Positions 22 through 13,070 of a DNA stretch of 13,070 nucleotides are shown in pieces. A program made the translations under genes and the position numbers. Position 1 is the first letter of the stretch. Each line of letters opens with the position of its first letter. Source of the stretch: an uncultured archaeon. Lineage in GTDB: Archaea; Iainarchaeota; Iainarchaeia; Iainarchaeales; 1-14-0-10-31-34. The notes below the pieces were generated by a model that was not told the DNA's origin, ran no database searches, and saw nothing but the letters and a program-made list of their open reading frames with translations. The stretch lies in NCBI GenBank assembly GCA_964608675.1, contig CAZSOZ010000010.1, positions 1-13,070 on the forward strand. The letters are read 5' to 3'.

Positions 22-126
22 TCACTTGTCCCACGAAAATGGATAAGAGCGTTCGACAAAAGGGGGAACATTCCTCAAGAGGGTGATTTGCCGGGATAGC
101 TGATCCTCGGAGGATGATGAACCCAT
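22..126 (-). CDS. Putative 34-aa small ORF (MGSSSSEDQLSRQITLLRNVPPFVERSYPFSWDK); a peptide or a truncated gene remnant
   Basis: Manual minus-strand translation: ATG at 126, TGA at 24-22. AAGGAG (ctcctt at 133-138) lies 6 nt upstream. Too short for the ORF track. Confidence 0.4.
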   Translation of the reverse strand: MGSSSSEDQLSRQITLLRNVPPFVERSYPFSWDK

Positions 127-304: not shown

Positions 305-667
305 ATGAATACGTTTACCTGGTTGTTGATGGGGCACTTGATAGGAGACTGGGTGCTGCAAAATGACTGGATGGCGAAGGACAAGCGACGGGGATGGGTC
401 ACGCCGGGCGGCCTGGCCCACTTCGCGATCTACACAGCGACCAGTTTCGGCGCCCTCGTCGTTTCTGGGCAGAACGATCCGTCTTTTTGCCTCGCGCCAG
501 GGCTCGTCATTTTCGTCTCTCACTGGCTGATCGACGCCGGGGACGTCGCCGGGCGCTGGATGCGCCTCTTCCGGCAGAGCGATCTGACGTGGGTGCGCGT
601 GGTGGTCGATCAAACACTCCATCTCCTGGTGTTGATGGTGCTGGCCATGTTTTCCTTCGGGATGTGA
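305..667 (+). CDS. DUF3307-family small membrane protein
   Basis: Motifs GHLIGDWVLQxxxMAxxK, H(F)AIY, SHWLID and DQTLH in a hydrophobic 120-aa protein; AGAGGT/AGG RBS-like sequence upstream. Confidence 0.88.
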   Translation: MNTFTWLLMGHLIGDWVLQNDWMAKDKRRGWVTPGGLAHFAIYTATSFGALVVSGQNDPSFCLAPGLVIFVSHWLIDAGDVAGRWMRLFRQSDLTWVRVVVDQTLHLLVLMVLAMFSFGM

Positions 668-703
668 GGAGGGAGCATAACTTCCAAATAGGGAGGTTGT
701 CAG

Positions 704-1855
704 ATGGCTTACGATAGAGAGATACGAGGCAGAATATCGAAATTGATGAGAGGTCTGCGAGCGAGGGCAGCGCCTCAACAGTTTGATCATAATCGAATCG
801 CCGGCCACGACGTTCGCATTGGACACTTGAATGGGACACGAGTCGAGCGATTCATCGTCCATTTCCGTTCCAATGGCTGTTTGTGGTGTAAAGCGAACGG
901 TGGTTGCACGATGTGTGGCTTTTGGAACGAGACAGCCCAAGGACACGAGGTGGTAACTGGGAAAGAGTTCGTCAATCAGTTCAAAGACGTGTTACATCGT
1001 TTTGACTTGCAAGAGTATCCGGTCCTGGGATTGTATAACGCCGGTTCCTTTTTGCAGGAAGAAGAGATCCCTTTTACAACGGTGGAGGAGATATTTCACC
1101 TCATAGCCGCGTACCTGCCGCATTTGAGGCAAGTGACTATAGAGAGTCGCGCGGAATACATCGGCAAGCAGAAACTCAGGAGCTTGCAGAACATCCTGGG
1201 GGACGATATCCAACTGGCGGTCGGGATGGGGTTCGACTCCGAGAATCACACTGTATGCAACCTAATCATCAACAAGGGAGTATCCAAGAAAGGGCTGGAG
1301 CGGGCGATAGAAATAACCAGGCAGCTAGATGTTCGATCCATTGTCTACGTGCTGCTCAAGCCTCCATTTCTGACTGAACGGGAGGCGATTGTGGACGCGG
1401 TCGAGAGCACCAGGTACGTCAGCGGGGTCGGCCCGACCGAGATCCACTACGAGACAGTGACCGTCGAGGCTGATACGCTGGTCGATCAGTTATACACGAG
1501 CGGTTTGTACAGACCAATGTGGCTGTGGAGTATCATCGAAATTCTGAAAAGGGTGCGTTCATTTGCTATGCCCTATATGACCCCTCTGCGGTACGTTGCT
1601 CAGGCGGTGGATGTGCCGCGCAACTGCCCCGCCTGCACGGAGATAGTGACAGATAGGATTTATAATCGGTACTGTTCGGACTGGGATTTGGCCCACTTCG
1701 CCGGTCTGGATTGCCCTTGCCGGGCGGAGTGGCTGGAGGCCGTACGCGAGGAGCCCTTGCTATCATTAGAGGAACGGGTTTGGGAGAGGGTGGAGGGGTT
1801 GGCGAAACGTAACTTGACGACATCAAGGGCTCTACCCGTGGTAACCCGAGGGTAG
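704..1855 (+). CDS. Radical SAM protein, TIGR01210 / archaeosine-synthesis RaSEA-like family
   Basis: GCLWCKANGGCTMCG (non-canonical cluster motif, nt 878-916), NAGSFL..EEI, IESRAEY, INKG, LLKPPFLTEREAI.D, YRPMWLWS and C-terminal RNCPAC...CPC.AEW, all matching the RaSEA/MJ0486-type pattern as I recall it. GGAGG RBS. Confidence 0.85.
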   Translation: MAYDREIRGRISKLMRGLRARAAPQQFDHNRIAGHDVRIGHLNGTRVERFIVHFRSNGCLWCKANGGCTMCGFWNETAQGHEVVTGKEFVNQFKDVLHRFDLQEYPVLGLYNAGSFLQEEEIPFTTVEEIFHLIAAYLPHLRQVTIESRAEYIGKQKLRSLQNILGDDIQLAVGMGFDSENHTVCNLIINKGVSKKGLERAIEITRQLDVRSIVYVLLKPPFLTEREAIVDAVESTRYVSGVGPTEIHYETVTVEADTLVDQLYTSGLYRPMWLWSIIEILKRVRSFAMPYMTPLRYVAQAVDVPRNCPACTEIVTDRIYNRYCSDWDLAHFAGLDCPCRAEWLEAVREEPLLSLEERVWERVEGLAKRNLTTSRALPVVTRG

Positions 1856-1937
1856 AGACCCTGCTTGGACAAGCACATCGTCAACAACGACGGATACGCG
1901 GACAGGTCGACACATCTTCCCTCTCTTGAGGAGATGT
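1827..1937 (+). terminator. Cluster of three hairpins at the 3' end of the radical SAM gene (no U-tract; possible terminator or RNA-stability element)
   Basis: CTCTACCC(1830-37)/GGGTAGAG(1850-57) spans the stop codon; TGCTTG-ga-CAAGCA (1862-1875); ACATCT..CCTC-tctt-GAGG-AGATGT (1912-1937). Confidence 0.3.
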
Positions 1938-1977
1938 CATTTAGAGCATAGAACACTCTTTGTAAAGGAACCAGCTT

Positions 1978-2235
1978 ATGCCATACGATGCTATTTACTA
2001 CTTGTTTTTGTTATTTTTGCTAATCACAGCCGTTATTGGAATCGCACTGGTTGTACTGGTTATCGGCGCATTCGTTCTTGGTCTGGCATCAACTATAGGG
2101 GGCATCATTGCCTACTGGCGGAGTAACAGCGGGACCATGCGTGTTCTCAGCGCAATTGCTGTTGGCTGTGGTATGACTTTGCTCTTAGCCATCGGTTTGT
2201 TTTTGTTATTTCTGGTTTACGCCTATGCATTTTAG
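1978..2235 (+). CDS. Small hydrophobic membrane protein (2-3 TM helices), hypothetical
   Basis: 85 aa, almost entirely hydrophobic; AAGGA RBS upstream. Confidence 0.7.
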   Translation: MPYDAIYYLFLLFLLITAVIGIALVVLVIGAFVLGLASTIGGIIAYWRSNSGTMRVLSAIAVGCGMTLLLAIGLFLLFLVYAYAF

Positions 2236-2354
2236 GAACGATGTCTGATTCAGAGGTTCACTACACTTGCTCGACCGCTTACTGTAGTTTGCTAAAAATT
2301 CGATTGCCAGTCTCAGCAGACAAACTCTCGTCATTTAAAGAGAAGGGAAAGCTT

Positions 2355-3434
2355 ATGTCCGAGAATAACTTGAAACGAGCCTATCAGTTGGTGCGGAAGA
2401 ATCCAGATGACCCAGAGGCTTGGATAAACTTGGGTAACTTACTGCAGGCCAGTGGAGACAAAGAGAAAGCAGCCCAGTGTTTTCAGCACGCACGACAATT
2501 GACCATTGCTCAAATCCCATCTCCGCCAACCCAGCCGGAAGAAACTATTTATTGCTCTCAGTGCGGCCACGCCAATCCGCCTGTAGCGAGGTTTTGTGGC
2601 GAGTGCGGTGCAACACTTGTAAGTGATAAATATTCATCTCCATCGCCGCCACCTTCTGTATCACCTCGAAAAAAGGAAAAAGGGGGTTCGTTGCCGAACT
2701 TCAAAACTACTGTTGGAAATCTGCCAGAGCCACTCGATTCTATGACTTCAACAGATCTTATCAAAATTCTCATCGGCGGTGGCATACTAGCGATCATCAT
2801 ATTGTTCTCGATTTTGCATGAATTTGTTGCCTTGATATTCGCACCGCTATATATAATCCCCATAGGATATGCTCTTACATTCGCCAAACAGGTGATTGAC
2901 ACTGATCAATATTTCCCCTTACCGCTCTGGACCAACTGGCGTGATATAGCTCGAAAGGGCGCCATTTTCTTTTTAATCCACGTAGCATATCTTGTACCTA
3001 GCCTTCTCCTACTTGGCATAACTGCCTTGCTGATATGGGGTATTGATACCCTTTCCTACGAGTTATCAGTTGAAGCGTTATCAGAGATCACAATCATGAT
3101 CGAAAATTTTGTGGAAACAATAGGTCCATTTATATTGGGGTTACTTTCCCTTCTGTCATGGGGGCTGGCTGACATGGCCACTTGCAATTACCTGCGGAAG
3201 GAAAAACTGGCTGCTGCCTTCCGCGTTATAAAAGTGTTTGGATACTTCAGGCGTGCTATACTTCGCCTTATACCAGGCTACTTACTTTACATTGTAGTCT
3301 TCTTGATCCTACAGGCTGCTGGCTGCGTACTATGTGGCGTGGGAATATTTGCCTCTCTGTTCATCGCTTTACTGCTCTATGAAGCCTTCTTGGCACATAT
3401 TTATCGAAGGGCCGAAATGTCTATCGAGAGATAA
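2355..3434 (+). CDS. TPR + zinc-ribbon + DUF4013 membrane protein
   Basis: Start moved to ATG 2355 (GAAGGGA RBS). TPR motif NPDDPEAWINLGNLLQASGDKEKAAQCF; ribbon CSQC-x10-CGEC; Pro-rich linker; DUF4013-like KILIGG...IPIGY...LPLWTNW...KG..Y with several TM helices. Confidence 0.82.
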   Translation: MSENNLKRAYQLVRKNPDDPEAWINLGNLLQASGDKEKAAQCFQHARQLTIAQIPSPPTQPEETIYCSQCGHANPPVARFCGECGATLVSDKYSSPSPPPSVSPRKKEKGGSLPNFKTTVGNLPEPLDSMTSTDLIKILIGGGILAIIILFSILHEFVALIFAPLYIIPIGYALTFAKQVIDTDQYFPLPLWTNWRDIARKGAIFFLIHVAYLVPSLLLLGITALLIWGIDTLSYELSVEALSEITIMIENFVETIGPFILGLLSLLSWGLADMATCNYLRKEKLAAAFRVIKVFGYFRRAILRLIPGYLLYIVVFLILQAAGCVLCGVGIFASLFIALLLYEAFLAHIYRRAEMSIER

Positions 3435-3539
3435 AAGCTCCCGATAGAAGTCAAGATTATCGCAAGCAAAAATCTGAGACTGTAACGTGAAATCCCAAAA
3501 GCCACTTTCATTTGGTAAAATAGTTGAGGAGGTGCGAAG

Positions 3540-4868
3540 GTGTCAGGTAAATTACAGCAGGCTATCAATGCCATACAGACAAATGACAAAGCAACCGCCG
3601 AGCGGTTGCTAACCGAAATACTGCAAAGTAACCCCCGTAATGAAGAGGCCTGGTTGTGGATGGCAAGGGCTACGGATTCCGATGACTATCAACAGCAGTG
3701 CTTCCGTAATGTGCTAAAGATTAACCCAGACAATGAAGCTGCTCAACAGGGTATAGCTGCACTGCAATCTGACAGATCTATCGTTGCCACACAACCACAG
3801 GAACCTGCTGTTGCGACAACGAAGGAAAAATTCCCAGATTTGAGTTACAGAGCCTTCCAACATCCATTGGATCGGGAAGCATTAAAGGCTCTTGAGAAGG
3901 TCAGGTTTCTGGATACTGTAGTCAGAAAATTCAGTGAGTGGTTCAGCGAGAAGAACTTTCGACTTCTCAGTGTTTCCAACAATATCCGGTTGGGTTCCAG
4001 GCAGTGTCCTAGTATTTACAACAAGTTTATTGAGGTTGCTACCATTTTGGATATGCCCAAGCTGCCAGAGGTATACGTTGACAGCACTTACACCATCAAT
4101 GCTTATGCATACGGCATGGAAAACTATACCATTACGTTATGTTCTGGATTGATCGATATGTTGACTGAGGATGAACTATTAGCTGTAATTGGACATGAGT
4201 TAGGGCACATTAAGTGCAATCATATGTTATACAAGACTATGGCTTTCATTCTGGCCGAGTTTGGCTCTGATCTGCTGAACAGCTTATTGCCAATGGGTAT
4301 CGGAATGGCCGCCACTATGGGAATTCAACTAGCTATCTATCAGTGGTATCGCATGGCCGAATATTCGTGTGACCGGGCAGCTCTGCTAGTGGTGCAAGAT
4401 CCGTCAGTTGTTGCCAATGCCTTAACCAAATTGGCCGGATATTCACGCAAGATTTTACCTGAACTCAATATGGAGGAGGTTTTACTTCAAGCAAGCGAAT
4501 ACGAGGAAACGAGTGGTGCGTTGGAGAAGACTATGAAGCTTTTTCAAATAGTTGGTCGTACCCATCCTATGCCTGTCGTAAGGGCAAAAGAAATCATGCA
4601 GTGGTCCCAGTCCGACGAATATCAGGAAATATTGGCAGGTAACTATCTTACGATGACGGATGAACTATCGCCCCGACAAACAGAGCAGCCAACCGGACCG
4701 GTTTGTCCTAATTGTAATACTGTCAACCCTGAGGGATACAAATTCTGTTACAAATGTAGGACCAAAGCTCCGCCAGAGGGCCAATGTGGAGGTATAACGT
4801 GTCCTCAATGTCATACAGTTATCCGAGCAGGGGCCAAGTTCTGCTTTAAATGTGGCGCTCAACTATAA
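3540..4868 (+). CDS. M48-family zinc metallopeptidase with an N-terminal TPR-like domain and a C-terminal double zinc ribbon
   Basis: GAGGAGGT RBS with GTG start. INAYAYG, ELLAVIGHELGH (HExxH at 4194-4208), AEYSCDRAA and THP. N-terminal NPRNEEAWLWMA..INPDN repeat; C-terminal CPNC/CYKC and CPQC/CFKC. Confidence 0.9.
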   Translation: MSGKLQQAINAIQTNDKATAERLLTEILQSNPRNEEAWLWMARATDSDDYQQQCFRNVLKINPDNEAAQQGIAALQSDRSIVATQPQEPAVATTKEKFPDLSYRAFQHPLDREALKALEKVRFLDTVVRKFSEWFSEKNFRLLSVSNNIRLGSRQCPSIYNKFIEVATILDMPKLPEVYVDSTYTINAYAYGMENYTITLCSGLIDMLTEDELLAVIGHELGHIKCNHMLYKTMAFILAEFGSDLLNSLLPMGIGMAATMGIQLAIYQWYRMAEYSCDRAALLVVQDPSVVANALTKLAGYSRKILPELNMEEVLLQASEYEETSGALEKTMKLFQIVGRTHPMPVVRAKEIMQWSQSDEYQEILAGNYLTMTDELSPRQTEQPTGPVCPNCNTVNPEGYKFCYKCRTKAPPEGQCGGITCPQCHTVIRAGAKFCFKCGAQL

Positions 4869-4889
4869 ATAACGTTGGAACGTGAAAAT

Positions 4890-5047
4890 TGGACTTTGGA
4901 CAAATCTTATTTGACCTTCCCGAAAGCTTTCAAGTGCGATGAAACTAGCTGAGAATTGCCTGAAAGCGAGCTTTTTTGACCTTTTAGGCTGTTCTTTTCA
5001 GCTTTCGGAGGATTGTTGGCGAAAATCTGAGCTTTATCCAAAGTCCA
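4890..5047. mobile_element. 158-bp MITE-like element / internally deleted IS remnant
   Basis: Terminal inverted repeats 4890-4909 TGGACTTTGGACAAATCTTA vs reverse complement of 5028-5047 TGGACTTTGGATAAAGCTCA (17/20, first 11 identical). Inner IR CCGAAAGCT (4920-28)/AGCTTTCGG (5000-08). No credible ORF. Confidence 0.6.
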
Positions 5048-5082
5048 GTAAAAAATAAGCTAGCGATTAAAAGGGAGAGATC

Positions 5083-5769
5083 ATGCTTTATTGTCCTGAA
5101 TGTGGTACAGCTAACCCAGAACAAGGAGTCTTTTGCACTGAATGCGGCACCGAACTGCCGCAGCCAATAACTTCGCAAACTTCTCGATCCATTACCAGTC
5201 GATCCTCCACATCAGCGCCTCAGTCACAATCACAAGGGGAATCCTGGTGGCAGCGGCTTGGGCCTGATTGGAAAGCGGCGATTTTGGTCTATTTGGGCTG
5301 GCTTGTTATGGAATCACTGGTAACTGTGACAGGCGGAGCAGGTTGTCTCTTTTCCTATCCTATTCTTGCGCTCATTGGCCTGGGTCAAGGGGTGCTTGTA
5401 ATGTACTATGCTTCTCGCGACAACCGCTACACCTCGGCAGACTGTTTCCGACTAGGAGCACGTTCGGCGCTATGGACTGTGATAGTGACAAAAGTGGGCG
5501 CTGTATTAGTCGCAGTGCTTTTTTCGGGAATGACTCTGGGGATGGCCCTGGCCATATTGCCAATTGTTCTTGCAGCCCAATTGGGGGGTACTGTGATCCA
5601 AACAGTGGCGATCATCCTGGGTTCCTGGCTCAGTGGTCAGTATAGAGGCAAAAAATTGATCGGTATACTAGTAGGTGTGGGGTGTAGTGCTGCTGTCATT
5701 CTTGGCATTTTGACTGCTATTCTGGTTGCTGTCTTGGGGGCGTTGGGGATTCCTTTGCTGCAGCAGTAG
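5083..5769 (+). CDS. Zinc-ribbon domain multi-pass membrane protein
   Basis: AAGGGAG RBS; N-terminal YCPECGTANPEQGVFCTECGTEL; S/Q/T-rich linker; about 5 hydrophobic segments. Confidence 0.85.
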   Translation: MLYCPECGTANPEQGVFCTECGTELPQPITSQTSRSITSRSSTSAPQSQSQGESWWQRLGPDWKAAILVYLGWLVMESLVTVTGGAGCLFSYPILALIGLGQGVLVMYYASRDNRYTSADCFRLGARSALWTVIVTKVGAVLVAVLFSGMTLGMALAILPIVLAAQLGGTVIQTVAIILGSWLSGQYRGKKLIGILVGVGCSAAVILGILTAILVAVLGALGIPLLQQ

Positions 5770-5804
5770 GCCCCTAGTCAATGCTTGGAGGAAGAAGTAC
5801 AACG

Positions 5805-6363
5805 ATGAATGTCTCAACCATCGGGCAAGATGCCTGTACTGATGGAACATCCTACTGTCCACAGTGCGGCTCGGAGATGGAAGCGCTAGCTTGTTACTGT
5901 TCCCAGTGCGGGACAAAAGTGCCCGGGGAATATGCCGCGCAAGCCCAAAAGCGACTATCGGTGGAGCCGGTCACGTTGTTGCCAGCCCAGATGTTGGGTT
6001 CCCGTTTTCACAGCAAATACTACGGGCGACTCATCTGCGCGGACAACGCGCTCTACTTCATTCAGGGGTGCGAGGTGTCGGTTACGGTCTTGGGTGGGCT
6101 TGCCGTTTATTCTTTGGAAAGAGCGACGAGCCAAGAAAGGCCTTGCCGGTATCACGCACTTGTCGCCCGCGAAATAGGCGCAGATGATGCCTGGCTTGTT
6201 CAGGCTAGCGATCTCCGAGATCGCCAGCTATGACATCTTTCTCAACGCCATAGACCTGCGTCTCAAGAACAGCCGAAAGATACGGTTCGCTGTAGGTGTT
6301 CACAAGTTGAAGGTCGAACTGTTTTTACAACAGCAGGGCGTACTATGTGAAGAAAAGGGGTAA
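5805..6363 (+). pseudogene. Zinc-ribbon protein, probably frameshifted near 6175-6230 (frame-3 ORF ends at 6233; a frame-1 continuation ends at 6363)
   Basis: GGAGG RBS before ATG 5805; YCPQCG..YCSQCG ribbon; YYGRLICADNALYF. An overlapping open frame 6178-6363 (..PGLFRLAISEIASYDIFLNAIDLRLKNSRKIRFAVG..) stops 3 nt before the next gene. Confidence 0.55.
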
Positions 6364-6366
6364 AAG

Positions 6367-9300
6367 ATGAACAAAAAACAATGGCTGATCCTTGGCATGC
6401 TCGGCGCGTGCAACTTTGTCGTCTGTTCCTTACTCGCTATCCTAGCGATCGTGGATTTGCCCTTTCCCGGTGCAGAAACGCCAACGCCTGCGCCCACTAT
6501 TGCACAATCAGGTTACCAGGGTCCCGAAGCCGAGAGCGTACGTCAGTTTGCTGAGGACCCCAGTCTGCAGCTTGAAGACCGTGGCGTAGAAGACTATCCA
6601 TTCGGACAAACCCGTCGGTTGGTGACAAGCGGTGGTCAAGATAGAACGAGCTATGAGGTGGACATTGAGACCGGCGAGGTTCGAAAGATGTTCCACTACG
6701 GCCAGCAATCGGAGACGGTAGAAATCAGTCGCGAGCAAGCGCGCAATTTGGCAGTGGATTTTGCCCGTTCCCACTACTCCGACTTCGACACATTAGGCTT
6801 GACGTTGGTGACTGATCAATTGGTGGACCATGGGGACCAAGCTGATAAGTTCTACTCCTTTCGATGGGTGCTCTTTGACGCTGATTCCGGTGCAATCTTG
6901 CCTTTCATGGTTCGCATACGGGTCAACGCTGTCACGGGGCAAATTGCCAGCTACAGCAACCTCCGCCAAGAGGTGATAGTATCCACTCAACCTCAGATTG
7001 ACAGGGATCGGGCCCGAGAGATCGCTGTAGCAACCGTTGCGGAACAGATGCCTGATGTCCAGGCGCAGAGCGTATCGTTGAGTGTCACAACTCTGCCGAG
7101 GGAGGAAGGATATAGTGAGCAGATGCTGCTATGGCAGGTCGTCGTAACTGGACAGTCCGCCGAGATGGATTCGACACCTGGAGCTGTAGTCTACATCAAC
7201 GCCCACACAGGAACAATGGAGAGAATGGCCCCCTTTGTTGGTACAGCTTGGCCGGCGCCTTTGGCACAACAGCGAAGAGACAGCGTCTATCCGCTCTCAG
7301 AAAGCACTTCGTACAGGATTGACATCTATCAAGGTGTACGCGCCGGCGATGCCGGCGACAAGTTCGACTATCTTGCCAATGAAGCCGGTTATGAACTGAG
7401 GCATTACCTTGAGGACCAAGGCTATGACTGCATTACCGAACCACGATTGTACCACGATGCCGACGATAACTTCGTACTGAACAACCTGCCAAACGATGTC
7501 ATTTTCATGTTTGTGGGTCACAGTAATCCTCTCTTGATTCAACTTGAACGTAACGATGGATCGATAACTAGATTGAGTTCATCCCAGATTCGAGACCTGC
7601 AAAGCGTCAACTCCCCAATGCCTCTTAGTAACCTGCAATTGGCTATTTTTGTGGGCTGTAACTCGGGTCGCGATTACGAAGAGTTTACAGAAGAGGCCTG
7701 CCCTAACGGTTTAGCCGACTGCGGTTTACTCCCAGCAACCCTAGATGCAGGCACTCGTGCAGCAATCGGTTTTGCCAACTACATCATGCCCCGTCAAGTG
7801 AAGGTTTGGAATAGCAAGTTTTGGGATTATCTGTTGAATGATGGGGTGAGTATTGAGGACGCCGCTTTGAGTGCAGCCGAAGGCTTCGCCTTCTATCAGT
7901 TTGACATTAATTTCGATCCGATCGACGGGTCTTGGGCAGAAATCATCCCTGCGTTGAACAGCGACACCGTCGTCGTAAGAGGGAATGATGGGGCTGAAAA
8001 CGAGCCCTTAGATTTGGGCTCTTTGTGTGCTTCTCTTCCGCGACTCGAAACGTACACAGCCAACGTAAGTGTAGAACCGGATCTAGCTTGCCCCGGTCAA
8101 GTGTTGCATCAAGACGGCACAGGATTTGCGCCCGGCCAACCAGTGGAGCTGACCTTTACCCACGAGAGAACCGGCCAAACGTGGACCTACACGATCCCGG
8201 CAGAGAACGTGCTGGACGACGGGACGGGCAACGGCAACTACATCCACGAGTTCACTATGACCACGGACTTCCCCGCCGGACGGTATCACTACACCGCCTA
8301 CCAGCCGGCCAGCGGGCGCGAGAGCAACTCCGTCCAGTATTGGCTCTCCAACCCCCAGGTCACCAACCCCGGCGTGGGCTGGCCGGGGGCGACAGTGGAC
8401 GAAAGCGGCACGGGGTTTGGCCCAGGCGAAGATGTCGAGTTGGTGTTTACCTATCCCGACGGCAGCCAGCATACCGCACAAGAGACTACAGACGAGCAGG
8501 GTGCTTACCAGCACCTCTATCCGATACCGGCATCGGATGAGGTGCTGCCGGGCTGGTATACGTATTCGGCGCGTGGATTGACCAGCGGGTGCAGCAGCGC
8601 ACCGGTCCGTTTCTGGATCACCGACCCACAGGTCGCCGTTTCCCAGGACGATTACGTGTGCCAGGTCTCTGGAACAGGATTTACACCGGGAGAGCAAATC
8701 GACATTCAAATGGTTCGCGAGAGCGTTCTCACGTCTGGGGAGGCCGACAATCGCACGCTGAATGACACGACCGGTGCGAACGACGCGGGCGAGTTCACCT
8801 ATCAGGCCCGCCTGGACCTGGCCGGCAAGACCTACGATTCGTTGCGCTTCATCGTTACGGACAGCCGCTCTGGGTTGACGATGGCACCCGAGACCACGTG
8901 CGAGCTGGTGGAACTCCACGGGCTGGAGGAGCTGCCCACAGAGGGTTTGGTGGCGTATTATCCCTTCAACGGCAACGCCAACGACGAAAGCGGCAGCGGA
9001 AACGACGGGATCGTCGAAGGCGCAACGCTGACGGCGGACCGCTTTGGCCATCCGAATAGCGCGTATGCGTTCAATGGGCAAACGGACTACATCGTCTCAA
9101 GTCGCACTGACTCGCTCGAGACTGATTACACAGTCTCTTTGTGGTTCAATCATATAGAGTCGAATGGCATCTTATTTCACAGAGGCAGAAGTAATGAATG
9201 CGAATATGAACCAAGGCTGGCTGTCGAGTATCAGGTGTTGCATGGGATGGTTTCGGGTTGCAGCGGTGGAGGAAGGTTTGGAGCAGTAGATGTAGCTCCT

Positions 9301-9960
9301 GGTGCCTGGCACCACGTTGTAGAGATTGTTCGAGGAAGATCACAAGAGCTTTACGTCGATGGTCAGCTTGTGGCGACGGGGAATAAAACTCCAGCAAGCA
9401 CTTCCTCCAGATTCTTCATAGGAGTAGTAACGCCAGATGGCAGCAATCCAGGCGTAGCCACATCCTTTTTCCATGGCATCATAGACGACGTCCGCGTCTA
9501 CAATCGCGCTTTGAGCGAGACGGAGGTCCAGGCGCTGTACCACGAGGGCGATTGGGAACCGGAGCCCGTATCCTCTGAAGAACTAGAGGTTCCCTTCAGT
9601 GGTGGCCCAAATGCAGTTACCACCCAAAACAGCTACCGTGGGCGAGTGCTGATCACCGTTTCTGGCACAGGTAGAGCGGCAGGCAGGCAACTGAGTGATG
9701 CCTTCTATCTCTTCACCGACGGAGCGGGCAACACCACGTCACCGCGCCACCCGACCGACCGGTACAACTGGCTCCTGTGGATCAACGGCGCCCACGCAGA
9801 GCGATTTATCGTCGGTGGGCAGGTGCCGGCCTACCGCGAAGACCACGTCTACACCTTTGAGATTGAGGCACCTGGCGGTCCATTGACGTTCGGGATAGGC
9901 GATATTGGAGGAAGGGATAATCAGGGAAGCTACCAAGTGCGTATCCAACGTATCCCATAA
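6367..9960 (+). CDS. Large exported/membrane-anchored multidomain protein: PepSY-like repeats, caspase/gingipain-fold (clan CD) peptidase-like domain, 3 Ig-like repeats, LamG domain, C-terminal LecA-like domain
   Basis: N-terminal KK plus hydrophobic helix; V(D/N)xxTG and I(S/D)RxxARxxA repeats; IFMFVGHS (H385) and LAIFVGCNSG (C431); GTGFxPG three times; GLVAYYPFNGNANDESG...IDDVRVYNRALS; C-terminal DNQGSYQV. Confidence 0.85.
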   Translation: MNKKQWLILGMLGACNFVVCSLLAILAIVDLPFPGAETPTPAPTIAQSGYQGPEAESVRQFAEDPSLQLEDRGVEDYPFGQTRRLVTSGGQDRTSYEVDIETGEVRKMFHYGQQSETVEISREQARNLAVDFARSHYSDFDTLGLTLVTDQLVDHGDQADKFYSFRWVLFDADSGAILPFMVRIRVNAVTGQIASYSNLRQEVIVSTQPQIDRDRAREIAVATVAEQMPDVQAQSVSLSVTTLPREEGYSEQMLLWQVVVTGQSAEMDSTPGAVVYINAHTGTMERMAPFVGTAWPAPLAQQRRDSVYPLSESTSYRIDIYQGVRAGDAGDKFDYLANEAGYELRHYLEDQGYDCITEPRLYHDADDNFVLNNLPNDVIFMFVGHSNPLLIQLERNDGSITRLSSSQIRDLQSVNSPMPLSNLQLAIFVGCNSGRDYEEFTEEACPNGLADCGLLPATLDAGTRAAIGFANYIMPRQVKVWNSKFWDYLLNDGVSIEDAALSAAEGFAFYQFDINFDPIDGSWAEIIPALNSDTVVVRGNDGAENEPLDLGSLCASLPRLETYTANVSVEPDLACPGQVLHQDGTGFAPGQPVELTFTHERTGQTWTYTIPAENVLDDGTGNGNYIHEFTMTTDFPAGRYHYTAYQPASGRESNSVQYWLSNPQVTNPGVGWPGATVDESGTGFGPGEDVELVFTYPDGSQHTAQETTDEQGAYQHLYPIPASDEVLPGWYTYSARGLTSGCSSAPVRFWITDPQVAVSQDDYVCQVSGTGFTPGEQIDIQMVRESVLTSGEADNRTLNDTTGANDAGEFTYQARLDLAGKTYDSLRFIVTDSRSGLTMAPETTCELVELHGLEELPTEGLVAYYPFNGNANDESGSGNDGIVEGATLTADRFGHPNSAYAFNGQTDYIVSSRTDSLETDYTVSLWFNHIESNGILFHRGRSNECEYEPRLAVEYQVLHGMVSGCSGGGRFGAVDVAPGAWHHVVEIVRGRSQELYVDGQLVATGNKTPASTSSRFFIGVVTPDGSNPGVATSFFHGIIDDVRVYNRALSETEVQALYHEGDWEPEPVSSEELEVPFSGGPNAVTTQNSYRGRVLITVSGTGRAAGRQLSDAFYLFTDGAGNTTSPRHPTDRYNWLLWINGAHAERFIVGGQVPAYREDHVYTFEIEAPGGPLTFGIGDIGGRDNQGSYQVRIQRIP
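8060..8910 (+). repeat. Three tandem ~90-100-aa Ig-like repeats (protein level)
   Basis: GTGFAPGQPVELTFT (8116), GTGFGPGEDVELVFT (8407), GTGFTPGEQIDIQM (8671); the first two end in WLSNPQV / WITDPQV. Confidence 0.75.
9589..9945 (+). repeat. LecA-like domain, copy 1
   Basis: Gapless 119-aa alignment with 12514-12870; 72/119 identical by hand count. Confidence 0.9.
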
Positions 9961-9963
9961 GCC

Positions 9964-12900
9964 ATGAGACGCCCTGCCGTTGGCCCCAGCCTGTTGGAGG
10001 ACGACGTCGATCACTCCACCGTGCAGAGCAACACCCTGACCCACCAGAGCACAGGCGTGGAATTGTTCTCCAGCCACCACAATGCCATCCTCAGCAACAC
10101 GCTTTCCAGCGGACCGGCCGGCAACGAGACCCAGCAGAACAGTTGCTGGGGCGTCCGGCTCTACACCTCGACTCACAACCTGATTCAGGGCAACCAGGCC
10201 GATTACGTGGACCGCGAACGGTACGGGTTCTCCAGCGGTGACTCGGCCGGCATCCTGCTCGTCTACCATTCGGACGAGAACCAGGTCATCGGCAACTCGT
10301 TCACCCACAGCGGCGACGGATTTTTCATCGGCAATGAGAACGGCGCGCCCAGCAACCACAACTACATCGCGGACAATGATGGCTCCTACTCGCCGCACAA
10401 CGCATTCGAGACAACCTTCTCCGATGGGAACGTCTTCGAGAATAACGTCGCCTCCCACAGTCACTATGGATTCTGGCTAGGGTATTCCTACAACACCCAG
10501 GTGATCGGCAACGAGATCAACGACAACAGCGCGGTGGGCGTCGCCATTGAGCACGGCCACGATAACGCCATCATCAGCAACACCATCGCCAGCAACCCAA
10601 CCGGCGTCCGTCTCTGGGATGACGCCGCCGGCAATCCGTCCACGGACTACACCATCCGAGGCAACACGCTGATCACCAACACGACTGCTATCGCTATTGA
10701 GGACACCGACCGGGTATCCGTCGCCTACAACCAGATCGCGGACAACACTCAGCGCGGGGTCTGGGTGCAATCTATGTCCAACGGCGTGAACCTGGCCCAC
10801 AACGACATCACCTGCCAGGGCGTCGCCTGCACCTACGCCGTGGTCAACGGTATGCCGGATGGGCGATATGTGACCGCCCATCATAACTGGTGGGGGACCG
10901 CCACCAGCGGCGGGATCGAATCCGCCATCTACGACCATGTGGACGATTCAGCCAAGGGATACGTCTACTACGCGCCTTTCCGCCAGGAACCGGTGGGTAC
11001 GTCAACGTACCAGCCCGACTATATTCCGCTGACCGATGCGGCGATCAGCGGCCCGACGACGGGCGCCGCCCAGACGTATCATACATTCATCACCGCGGCT
11101 GGCCCCAGCACCACCACTCGACCGATCACCTACGTCTGGCAGACCGTCGAGCAATCCCCCATCACCCACACCAACGACCTGAGCGATGTCGTGAGCCTAT
11201 CCTGGAATACACCCGGCGCCCAAACCATTGCCGTCACTGCCACCAACGCCGCGGGAACAGTCGCCAGCACGCACGTCATCACCATCAGCGGCGATGGCGA
11301 CTCGCGACCACCGGCGTGCGGCCCGGAGATAGACACCTGGTCAGAGACGACCGCCTTACCTCAGGCGATGGGAACGCCCTTTTTGGGCGCCGGGCGGCAG
11401 CTCATCACCCATAACGGATACGTTTACTTTTTCAGCAACGGATACGACCACGACCCACGACCGACCACGGCTTACTACAGCCCCATCGACGCCGACGGCG
11501 CCCTGGGCACCTGGACCGAGACGACATCGCCGCCGGGCGAGTACTACGACCACGCCGTGGTGCGCGTCGGGGATTACGTCTACTTCATCACCGGGGCCGC
11601 CAATTCCACCGCCGTCTACTACGCTTCCATCAACGCCGACGGCTCGCTGGGCGCGTGGGCCAGCACCACCTCCCTGACTCCCTCCCGGCAGAACTTTGCT
11701 GCGGTCGCTTACGGGGAACACGTCTATGTCTCCGGCGGCAACGCCACGGGGACCCGCGACTTTGTCAAGGTCACGTCTGTGAACGCGGACGGATCGCTCG
11801 ACACCTGGGCGGACACCACCCCGCTGCCAGAAGTGATGGAGGGGCACACGATGGTCGCTCACGATGGACGCCTCTACGTCCTGGCCCCCAACAGCGCCGC
11901 CTATCACGCCCCCATCAACGCCGATGGTACGGTGGGCGATTGGGCTGCGACCACCGCGATGCCCCAGGCGATGTCCCGCTACGCCACGGTGGAATGCAGC
12001 GATCACCTGTATCTGTTGGGCGGCGGCTCTGCCTCCGTCACCTACGCGCCCGTGATGGACGGCGGCGCGCTGGGACAATGGCGGACGACCACCCCGCTGC
12101 CGGAACAGCGCAACCGTCTGCGGGTCGGCGCGCATAATTGCGCCCTCTACGCTGTCGGTGGATACGACGGCAGCAGCTACCAGGATACCGTCTACTACAC
12201 CCAACTGCCGGTGGCGCCGACCGGGGTGACCATCAGCGGGCCGGACGCCGGCGCCGTGCAGACCGAGCACACCTTCACCGCCACAGTTAGCCCGGTCACA
12301 GCGACGAAGCCTATCACCTACACCTGGCAGGCCACTGGTCAGCGCGAGGTGCTCACCGCCACGGACGATCTGGATCATAGCGTATCCTTCGCCTGGGACA
12401 CGCCAGGGACAAAAACCATCAGCGTGACCGTATCCAATGGCTGGCATTCGGTCACTGACAGCTACACTGTCACGATCTCATCGGGAATCGTGTGTGAGGA
12501 AGAGACGGTGGTCGTCCCCTTTGCTGGCGGCCCCTCCGCCGTCACCACCTCCGGCGCATACACCAACGACGTGATGCTCATCGTCTCTGGTATGGGACAA
12601 GCGGCCGGCGCGAAGTACAGCGACGCTTTCTACATCTTCACCGATGAGGATGGCAACCCCATCACGCCCTGGCACTCGACGTACCAGTACAATTGGGTGA
12701 TGTGGATCAACGGACAGCACGCCGAAAACCTGATCCTTGACCAGCAGACACCGGCCTACCGCGGCGATCATATCTACTCCTTCCCCATCGAGGCGCCGGG
12801 CGGGAATTTGACCTTCGGCGTGGGAGATACCGGCACGGGGGATAACACAGGCAGCTACACCGTCACTATCCGCTCGAACTGTCAGTTGACGGGGACTGTC

Positions 12901-13070
12901 ACCAAAGCGGTCAGCGAGGGGGTAGCAAATCCAGGCGACGTGCTCACCTATACCATCACGCTGAACGTCGCCGGGAACACCTTCGCGATCACCGATACGG
13001 TTCCCGAGCACGCCACTTACGTGCCCGGCAGCGCCACAGGAGGCGCCACCTACGTCACCGAGACCGACAG
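9964..13070 (+). CDS. Large surface protein, open at the 3' end and apparently 5'-truncated: parallel beta-helix (NosD-like), PKD, six-blade Kelch, PKD, LecA-like, DUF11
   Basis: Manually translated frame +1 has no stop from 9964 to the window end, so it is missing from the track. Beta-helix repeats (DSAGILLV..GDGFFIG..YGFWLGYSYNTQVIGNEI), NWWG motif, ISGP..PITYxW..WxTPG twice, Kelch repeats, TKAVS...PGDVLTYTITL...ITDTVP..TYVPGS. Strong GC3 bias. Confidence 0.88.
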   Translation, partial: MRRPAVGPSLLEDDVDHSTVQSNTLTHQSTGVELFSSHHNAILSNTLSSGPAGNETQQNSCWGVRLYTSTHNLIQGNQADYVDRERYGFSSGDSAGILLVYHSDENQVIGNSFTHSGDGFFIGNENGAPSNHNYIADNDGSYSPHNAFETTFSDGNVFENNVASHSHYGFWLGYSYNTQVIGNEINDNSAVGVAIEHGHDNAIISNTIASNPTGVRLWDDAAGNPSTDYTIRGNTLITNTTAIAIEDTDRVSVAYNQIADNTQRGVWVQSMSNGVNLAHNDITCQGVACTYAVVNGMPDGRYVTAHHNWWGTATSGGIESAIYDHVDDSAKGYVYYAPFRQEPVGTSTYQPDYIPLTDAAISGPTTGAAQTYHTFITAAGPSTTTRPITYVWQTVEQSPITHTNDLSDVVSLSWNTPGAQTIAVTATNAAGTVASTHVITISGDGDSRPPACGPEIDTWSETTALPQAMGTPFLGAGRQLITHNGYVYFFSNGYDHDPRPTTAYYSPIDADGALGTWTETTSPPGEYYDHAVVRVGDYVYFITGAANSTAVYYASINADGSLGAWASTTSLTPSRQNFAAVAYGEHVYVSGGNATGTRDFVKVTSVNADGSLDTWADTTPLPEVMEGHTMVAHDGRLYVLAPNSAAYHAPINADGTVGDWAATTAMPQAMSRYATVECSDHLYLLGGGSASVTYAPVMDGGALGQWRTTTPLPEQRNRLRVGAHNCALYAVGGYDGSSYQDTVYYTQLPVAPTGVTISGPDAGAVQTEHTFTATVSPVTATKPITYTWQATGQREVLTATDDLDHSVSFAWDTPGTKTISVTVSNGWHSVTDSYTVTISSGIVCEEETVVVPFAGGPSAVTTSGAYTNDVMLIVSGMGQAAGAKYSDAFYIFTDEDGNPITPWHSTYQYNWVMWINGQHAENLILDQQTPAYRGDHIYSFPIEAPGGNLTFGVGDTGTGDNTGSYTVTIRSNCQLTGTVTKAVSEGVANPGDVLTYTITLNVAGNTFAITDTVPEHATYVPGSATGGATYVTETD
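11026..12477 (+). repeat. Two PKD-like domains (11026-11286, 12214-12477) flanking six Kelch-like repeats (~11338-12207)
   Basis: Both PKD copies share ISGPxxGAxQTxHTF..PITYxWQ..WxTPG..I.VT..N. Each Kelch blade begins WxxTT and most end I/V-(N/D)-ADG-x-L/V-G. Confidence 0.8.
12514..12870 (+). repeat. LecA-like domain, copy 2
   Basis: VPFAGGPSAVTT...SDAFYIFTD...YNWVMWING...PAYRGDH...IEAPGGNLTFGVGD...DNTGSY; paralog of 9589-9945. Confidence 0.9.

Follow-up and report, generated by a model that had tools for sequence, protein, structure and literature searches.

Our study examined a radical S-adenosylmethionine (SAM) gene that resembles the archaeosine enzyme RaSEA, together with the small DUF3307 membrane-protein gene directly upstream of it, at the start of contig CAZSOZ010000010.1 (C10) of assembly GCA_964608675.1 (G000). 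The window analysed here is the whole of this contig, 13,070 nt in length. Phylogenetic inference placed the radical SAM protein not within canonical archaeal RaSEA (clade A), but in what is, as judged from the trees and profile scores, a large uncharacterised sister clade (clade B). Taken as a whole, we consider it rather probable that the window, an Anaerolineae contig assigned to the wrong bin, carries two real genes, that the radical SAM gene encodes a stand-alone clade-B enzyme with an amino-acid-derived small molecule as its substrate, and that its adjacency to DUF3307 is a local arrangement. Of this, the identity of the genes, the origin of the contig, the clade placement, the missing ArcS and the lack of a recurrent pairing are direct results, while the type of substrate and the chemistry are inferred.

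Relationship to archaeal RaSEA

RaSEA removes the carbon skeleton of lysine from a lysine adduct by radical C–N cleavage, and to our knowledge no other member of its family has been characterised. In the archaeosine synthesis of euryarchaea this radical SAM enzyme works as a complex with ArcS and takes the lysine moiety off preQ0-Lys (PMC11298593).

Homologues of the window protein numbered 303 at E <= 0.001 among 3814 candidates, and the relatives counted came to at least 581 in the species-genome collection and at least 466 among 600 matched metagenome stretches. The best 80 loci per scan were kept, with flanks of 4–6 kb in which genes were called by a simple longest-open-reading-frame (ORF) routine, and the context counts below come from these loci. 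In the family trees, which were unrooted, the branch between clades A and B had a support of 100 (FastTree, 119 rows), 99 (FastTree, 162 rows, split 82 vs 80) and 99 by the Shimodaira–Hasegawa-like approximate likelihood ratio test (SH-aLRT; IQ-TREE quick, 55 rows). The window protein fell on the clade-B side of this branch, away from the ArcS-linked archaeal proteins, in a subclade of its own of 33 rows (support 99). A phylogeny against archaeal RaSEA had been proposed in an earlier note on this DNA, and it shows the protein to be related to RaSEA yet outside the canonical clade on all three tests. The two clades compare as follows.

Hosts of clade A: Thermoplasmatota, Asgard groups, Hydrothermarchaeota and Methanocellaceae
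Hosts of clade B: the window, many bacterial phyla, the Methanoculleus group and some DPANN archaea
TIGR01210 score: 290–380 bits in clade A (7 of 7 tested); 184–234 bits in clade B (16 of 16 tested)
ArcS (DUF5591 with PUA) in the locus: 30 of 82 in clade A; 0 of 80 in clade B
GCD14-type tRNA methyltransferase in the locus: 30 of 82 in clade A, in loci other than the ArcS ones; 0 of 80 in clade B

The curated TIGR01210 cut-off of 212.15 bits runs through clade B, as 10 of the 16 proteins tested (from loci in the range L012–L097) lie above it (214–234 bits) and six below. Those that pass include L037, L043 and L053, which are members of non-ribosomal peptide synthetase (NRPS) clusters. The cut-off probably lets enzymes that do not make archaeosine be named RaSEA, and some bacterial family members do carry the name 'archaeosine biosynthesis radical SAM protein RaSEA' in their sources. 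Given the split between the two clades, clade-B proteins that bear this name are probably over-annotated. In the Methanoculleus group, four of five genomes have one copy scoring 310–318 bits and another scoring 217–238 bits, which fits paralogues with different roles. In genome G008 (L262) the canonical copy is split over two adjacent frames (77 and 217 bits), suggestive of either a frameshift or a misassembly.

The absence of ArcS extends to the genomes and to the window. No DUF5591 match over the cut-off was found in the four bacterial genomes with close homologues (G001–G004, given without completeness values), and in the window the nine large ORFs gave no match to a TGT, ArcS or Que family in Pfam or NCBIfam. 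The earlier note had reported the window to be free of tgt, arcS and que genes, and this stood. A strong PF01702 match was found once in each of the L011–L013 genomes, in open frames of 375–480 aa, and none in G004; judged by their length, these would be bacterial Tgt proteins. RaSEA forms a complex with ArcS, whereas ArcS is missing from all 80 clade-B loci, DUF5591 gave no match over the cut-off in the four genomes, and the window enzyme has a bacterial host. It is therefore not expected to serve in archaeosine synthesis. In our sample clade B matches the canonical clade in size (80 vs 82 loci), and it probably lies outside the archaeosine pathway. Our literature search found no paper on bacterial or NRPS-linked relatives of RaSEA and none naming TIGR01210; PMC11888242, as far as its accessible part goes, concerns dpd islands and not the RaSEA-like family.

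Properties of the radical SAM protein

The 383-aa product of positions 704–1855 matched TIGR01210 with an E value of 8.2e-60, its residues 49–350 aligning to model positions 15–306 of 313, and is thus homologous to RaSEA over about 300 residues. The hidden Markov model (HMM) searches proposed in the earlier note gave it 202.7 bits against TIGR01210, which is under the curated cut-off and 90–180 bits below the canonical members tested, and gave the DUF3307 protein 59.7 bits against PF11750. No Pfam family was matched by the radical SAM protein at E <= 0.01, Radical_SAM (PF04055) included. Its earlier description as a clear family member is right as to kinship, but with a score below the cut-off and no Pfam match, 'clear' was too strong.

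Residues C59, C68 and C71, which form a C-x8-C-x2-C motif, were invariant in a 43-row alignment covering both clades, as were C311, C337 and C339 of a C-terminal Cys site, with C308 nearly so. The motif and the C-terminal site are both shared with RaSEA. An AlphaFold2 (AF2) model based on 29 close relatives had a predicted local distance difference test score (pLDDT) of 88.7 and a predicted template modelling score (pTM) of 0.89. Foldseek against the PDB gave the radical SAM domain of Elp3, the pyruvate formate-lyase (PFL)-activating enzyme and queuine lyase as best matches, with viperin also found, at a probability of 1.00. With the three-Cys motif and a partial TIM-barrel both in place, the protein is, according to this model, a radical SAM enzyme of Elp3-like fold.

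Elp3 (PDB 8asw_C, 5l7j and 6ia6) gave the best fold matches, with E values of 3.9e-7 to 1e-5, and weak TIGR01211 matches occurred in clade-A relatives; the window protein differs in having no GNAT/KAT domain, an identity of 11–14% and a query-normalised template modelling (TM) score of 0.38–0.49. Queuine lyase of Clostridium spiroforme (PDB 6p78) is also a radical SAM enzyme and is the only solved structure, and only PDB entry, found by sequence (E 2.1e-6, residues 47–203). It stood at rank 5 in Foldseek with 20% identity, the highest among the top matches, but it is 230–251 aa long, is without the C-terminal Cys-rich part and aligns to the N-terminal half only. No RaSEA structure was found in the PDB by sequence or fold, and a search of the ESM Atlas returned only clusters named RaSEA or hypothetical protein.

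Gene neighbourhoods and predicted role of clade B

Comparison of the neighbourhoods of bacterial homologues, which the earlier note had also proposed, revealed no recurrent DUF3307 pairing but NRPS and amino-acid genes across clade B. NRPS, polyketide synthase (PKS) or AMP-binding genes were present in 15 of the 80 clade-B loci, 23 of which show fewer than four neighbours, and in none of the 82 clade-A loci. A class I/II aminotransferase was detected by phmmer in 6 of 80 clade-B loci. Such a gene adjoins the radical SAM gene in L039, L040, L053, L060, L068, L081 and L128, and in L118 (507–3176, + strand) it forms the N-terminal part of an 889-aa fusion with a clade-B radical SAM domain; two clade-A loci also have a class I/II aminotransferase, farther off. 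Alanine racemase occurred in 2 of 80 clade-B loci (L049 and L051), B3_4 proteins in four and B12 radical SAM genes in five, plus L101. Among individual loci, L060 has a PALP enzyme and an Orn/DAP decarboxylase, L109 has Lrp/AsnC regulators, and L107 and L112 have a carbamoyltransferase with a SPASM radical SAM enzyme. A second natural fusion was seen in P0008, a protein of 494 aa with 53% identity to the window protein, in which the partner is an A9CJY8-like_N+ACT_7 domain.

The loci closest to the window (L011–L014 and L098–L102) had no neighbour common to all of them and the window. L099 has a fatty-acid desaturase, L101 a PALP enzyme and a B12 radical SAM gene, L102 a UbiD gene and L098 only proteins of no known family. 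In L013 and L014 the radical SAM gene is followed immediately by a methyltransferase gene; it was considered as a partner and rejected, being absent from the window, L011, L012 and L098–L101.

The neighbours seen across clade B, namely NRPS genes, aminotransferases, racemases, B12 radical SAM and B3_4 proteins and amino-acid-sensing regulators, therefore make amino-acid-derived small molecules the most likely substrates of this clade. By analogy with RaSEA, the most economical guess is radical C–H/C–N chemistry on an amino-acid adduct. The enzyme would reductively cleave SAM and take a hydrogen from a C–H beside nitrogen in an adduct formed by an amino acid or amine; a C–N bond of the adduct would then be broken or rearranged. 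The window gene itself we read as a rare, horizontally spread, stand-alone accessory gene.

Several observations weigh against this reading. The small-molecule role is carried over to the window protein from distant clade-B members, 29–40% identical to it, since the neighbouring genes, both in the window and around its closest relatives, give no hint of a substrate. The nearest relatives of known function (Elp3, MnmL/YtqA, queuine lyase and RaSEA) all act on nucleosides or tRNA, and a nucleic-acid substrate is possible. The complete genome of Methanoculleus palmolei (G005; L022/L261) holds only a clade-B copy (231 bits) at E <= 1e-20, which counts against a clean functional split between the clades; this clade-B enzyme might be doing the job of RaSEA. 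Some local functional tie between DUF3307 and the radical SAM gene is also possible, because the two lie on one strand 36 nt apart and the arrangement is kept in L012, the corresponding locus on contig C111 of the Anaerolineae metagenome-assembled genome (MAG) G002.

A more ambitious version of the small-molecule reading, which we offer tentatively and think unlikely to hold in full, is that the clade-B enzymes are widespread radical C–N lyases that extend the ArcS–RaSEA logic to bacterial and archaeal secondary metabolism, NRPS products included, the window gene being a free-standing member whose adduct would be made elsewhere in the cell. By that logic, an amino acid would be attached through its amine and its carbon skeleton removed radically, leaving the nitrogen behind.

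Somewhat less probable again is that the window protein is a bacterial tRNA or nucleoside modification or salvage enzyme, comparable to Elp3, MnmL/YtqA or queuine lyase. In fold the protein comes closest to Elp3 and queuine lyase, several family members have weak secondary matches to TIGR01212 (MnmL/YtqA), and the close subclade is without conserved neighbours; a stand-alone gene fits such a role, because enzymes of this kind need no clustered partners. However, only 2 of 41 related genomes carry the gene, a distribution not expected of a housekeeping tRNA enzyme, and clade B occurs amid NRPS and pyridoxal-phosphate (PLP)-enzyme clusters and in fusions with aminotransferase or ACT domains. Moreover, a tRNA-modification gene adjoins the radical SAM gene in none of the 80 clade-B loci, against ArcS or GCD14 in 60 of the 82 clade-A loci.

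We therefore retain the small-molecule reading for clade B, which spans bacteria and archaea and often lies inside peptide or amino-acid biosynthetic clusters. The window gives little handle on the chemistry, and interest is lower for this locus than for the clade overall; the culturable hosts Paenibacillus (L037 and L091) and Oceanirhabdus (L053) are better entry points.

The DUF3307 gene and its pairing with the radical SAM gene

The features of the first part of the window are listed below.

53–126, reverse strand: start of a Crp/Fnr-type regulator gene, divergent from DUF3307 and cut short near the contig end
210–238, forward strand: sigma-70-like promoter match upstream of DUF3307 (TAGATA, 17-nt spacer, TATCAT, with TG before the second hexamer)
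305–667, forward strand: DUF3307 small membrane protein, 120 aa (PF11750, 59.7 bits)
668–703, forward strand: intergenic gap of 36 nt, with a ribosome-binding site (RBS) GGGAGG at 691–696, 7 nt before the ATG, and the L011 synteny breakpoint inside it
704–1855, forward strand: RaSEA-like (clade B) radical SAM enzyme, 383 aa (TIGR01210, 202.7 bits)
1824–1863, forward strand: hairpin with 14-nt arms spanning the radical SAM stop codon, a stable fold with no U-tract after it
1978–2235, forward strand: hydrophobic ORF of 85 aa downstream of the radical SAM gene

The DUF3307 protein matched PF11750 over residues 4–117 with an E value of 3.8e-16, well above the cut-off of 23 bits. It has 121 homologues, mostly from Chloroflexota where the source names a host. 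The invariant His, Asp, Trp and Gln residues include H11, D15, H39, H73, D77, D102 and H106 and lie within hydrophobic segments. A divergently transcribed Crp/Fnr-type regulator was found near DUF3307 in 43 of 80 loci (L178–L257); all five of these neighbours that were checked have cNMP_binding and HTH_Crp_2 domains, and the L012 regulator likewise. The invariant residues and the pairing with a Crp/Fnr regulator together suggest that DUF3307 is a regulated, metal-binding membrane protein. As far as the titles retrieved show, the literature has nothing on the function of DUF3307, which is named in a phage genome paper.

The earlier note had read the two genes as a two-gene module, and had placed the radical SAM gene 36 nt downstream of DUF3307. 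The spacing was confirmed, the gap being at 668–703, but the module was not recovered elsewhere. An HMM of 29 DUF3307 proteins, run in six frames at E <= 1, located DUF3307 in just two of the 162 radical SAM loci, the window and L012, although this model was built from Chloroflexota-type proteins and may miss remote forms. A phmmer search with the window DUF3307 over the first 82 radical SAM loci again gave only these two, and Pfam found no DUF3307 in the small upstream ORFs of L013, L014, L098 and L099. Conversely, a radical SAM relative lay within 4 kb of DUF3307 in 1 of 80 DUF3307 loci, on the same contig as L012. Of 41 genomes, namely G002 and 40 related to it, nine carry DUF3307 and two carry the radical SAM gene (E <= 1e-20), and in G001 the two are on separate contigs. 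The pairing is not recurrent, an outcome that the earlier note had itself named as refuting its reading, and a dedicated partnership is therefore not supported.

In its fuller form, the module proposal has DUF3307 and the radical SAM protein acting together on an unusual substrate, for example in 7-deazaguanine or DNA modification or in a membrane-based defence, and we regard this as quite improbable. It would account for two genes on the same strand with a 36-nt gap and a good RBS, in a pair kept at 92% DNA identity in L012. Weak DpdA-like TGT paralogues elsewhere in G001 and G002 also speak for it, as does the fact that the sole sequence relative in the PDB works on a 7-deazaguanine nucleoside. 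Against these stand the rarity of the pairing from either side, the unequal distribution of the two genes and their separate contigs in G001. The L011 match to the window sets in only at 693, within the 36-nt gap, with an HTH/AAA_16 gene upstream in place of DUF3307, and the recurrent neighbour of DUF3307 is instead the Crp-type regulator. There are no tgt or que genes in cis, and the DpdA-like genes occur in only two of the four genomes. No support was found for a link to 7-deazaguanine, DNA modification or defence, and the family-wide context points to amino-acid or peptide secondary metabolism.

The reading we prefer is that the radical SAM gene is a rare accessory gene that landed beside a Crp–DUF3307 pair in one lineage, DUF3307 being a separate gene whose usual partner is the divergent Crp-type regulator. 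Within the window lineage, co-transcription of DUF3307 and the radical SAM gene is likely.

The TGT-family paralogues mentioned above are short (317–341 aa) and only weakly DpdA-like, at 26–59 bits, far below the cut-off. They lie at L018 (15–968, - strand), L019 (1390–2415, - strand) and L020 (1360–2385, - strand). In L019 and L020 the gene stands in a four-gene run on one strand with two proteins of no known family and a sigma-70 region 4 protein, which in L020 has a HARE-HTH domain. As hidden partners of the radical SAM gene these paralogues were ruled out, being on other contigs and in 2 of 4 genomes only.

Origin of the contig

C10 is Anaerolineae (Chloroflexota) DNA that binning placed by mistake in an archaeal MAG. 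Assembly G000 comprises 1.21 Mb in 53 contigs and is rated 94% complete, and its rRNA operon is archaeal, the small-subunit (SSU) rRNA scoring 1408.6 bits on the archaeal model and 1113.5 on the bacterial one. C10 is foreign to this bin because its guanine-cytosine (GC) content of 53.8% departs from the 29–32% of the ten large contigs (C1–C9 and C11) and because its DNA is 92–96% identical to an Anaerolineae contig. By blastn, the window matched G002:C111 at 92% identity over 53–1787 and at 96% over 10002–13070, with a different middle segment in G002:C111 between the two. The nearest relatives of the radical SAM protein, at 88% protein identity, are likewise in two Anaerolineae/Anaerolineales MAGs. 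The bacterial context that the earlier note had assumed was thus borne out. The same note had allowed that an archaeal contig would overturn its reading, and the rRNA of G000 seemed at first to point that way, until the GC content and the Anaerolineae identity reversed it.

Since C10 is foreign to the bin, the absence of tgt and arcS from G000 is uninformative about the true host. TGT, ArcTGT and DUF5591 gave no match in G000, which, though 94% complete, is not the host of C10; TIGR00432 (ArcTGT) was searched in this archaeal bin only. These searches, together with that for QueC, were valid but irrelevant, as C10 does not belong to that genome. The case is an example of how a mis-binned contig can mislead both tests of absence in its own genome and assignments to a domain of life. 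Around three dozen further contigs of G000, of 1–5 kb and 40–68% GC, also appear foreign beside the ~30% GC genome; they are not reflected in the quoted contamination of 0.64%.

The archaeal rRNA of the bin and the TIGR01210 match (E 8.2e-60) would suggest a further reading, a true RaSEA encoded on archaeal DNA. This has next to no probability and is already contradicted by the GC content, by the 92–96% identity of both contig ends to Anaerolineae DNA, by the lack of TGT, ArcTGT and DUF5591 matches in the bin, by the placement in clade B and by a TIGR01210 score under the cut-off.

Other features of the window

Translated downwards from position 126, the sequence agrees with the L012 protein that has cNMP_binding+HTH_Crp_2 domains over its first ~25 residues; beyond these it departs from that protein and reaches a stop at codon 35. 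The DNA match to L012 begins at window position 53; positions 1–52 are unmatched in the otherwise collinear G002 contig and break the Crp-like frame with a stop, and they may represent a contig-end assembly artefact or a truncated gene.

The earlier note had described the gene pair as bounded by a promoter-like region and hairpins, of which the hairpin stood and the promoter did not. Promoter-like sites in 1–2400 were at chance level, with three found against 2.2 +/- 1.6 in shuffles. Region 1815–1975, which contains the hairpin at 1824–1863, folds at -53.9 kcal/mol (z = -3.35), a value matched by 0 of 200 shuffles. The terminator scan placed no terminator-like site where the radical SAM gene ends, nor did it list this hairpin. 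The ORF at 1978–2235 had no match in Pfam or NCBIfam; its DNA is common to L011 as far as the end of the L011 contig (window position 2216).

Positions 1788–10001, an 8.2-kb stretch of genes between the flanks that are common to G002:C111 at 92–96%, are a variable cell-surface segment. It contains the 85-aa membrane ORF, a TPR+zinc-ribbon+DUF4013 protein, an M48 peptidase with zinc ribbons, two further zinc-ribbon proteins and a 1197-aa Laminin_G_3 protein. At the same position G002 has a single 1959-aa CARDB/PKD/cohesin/dockerin protein.

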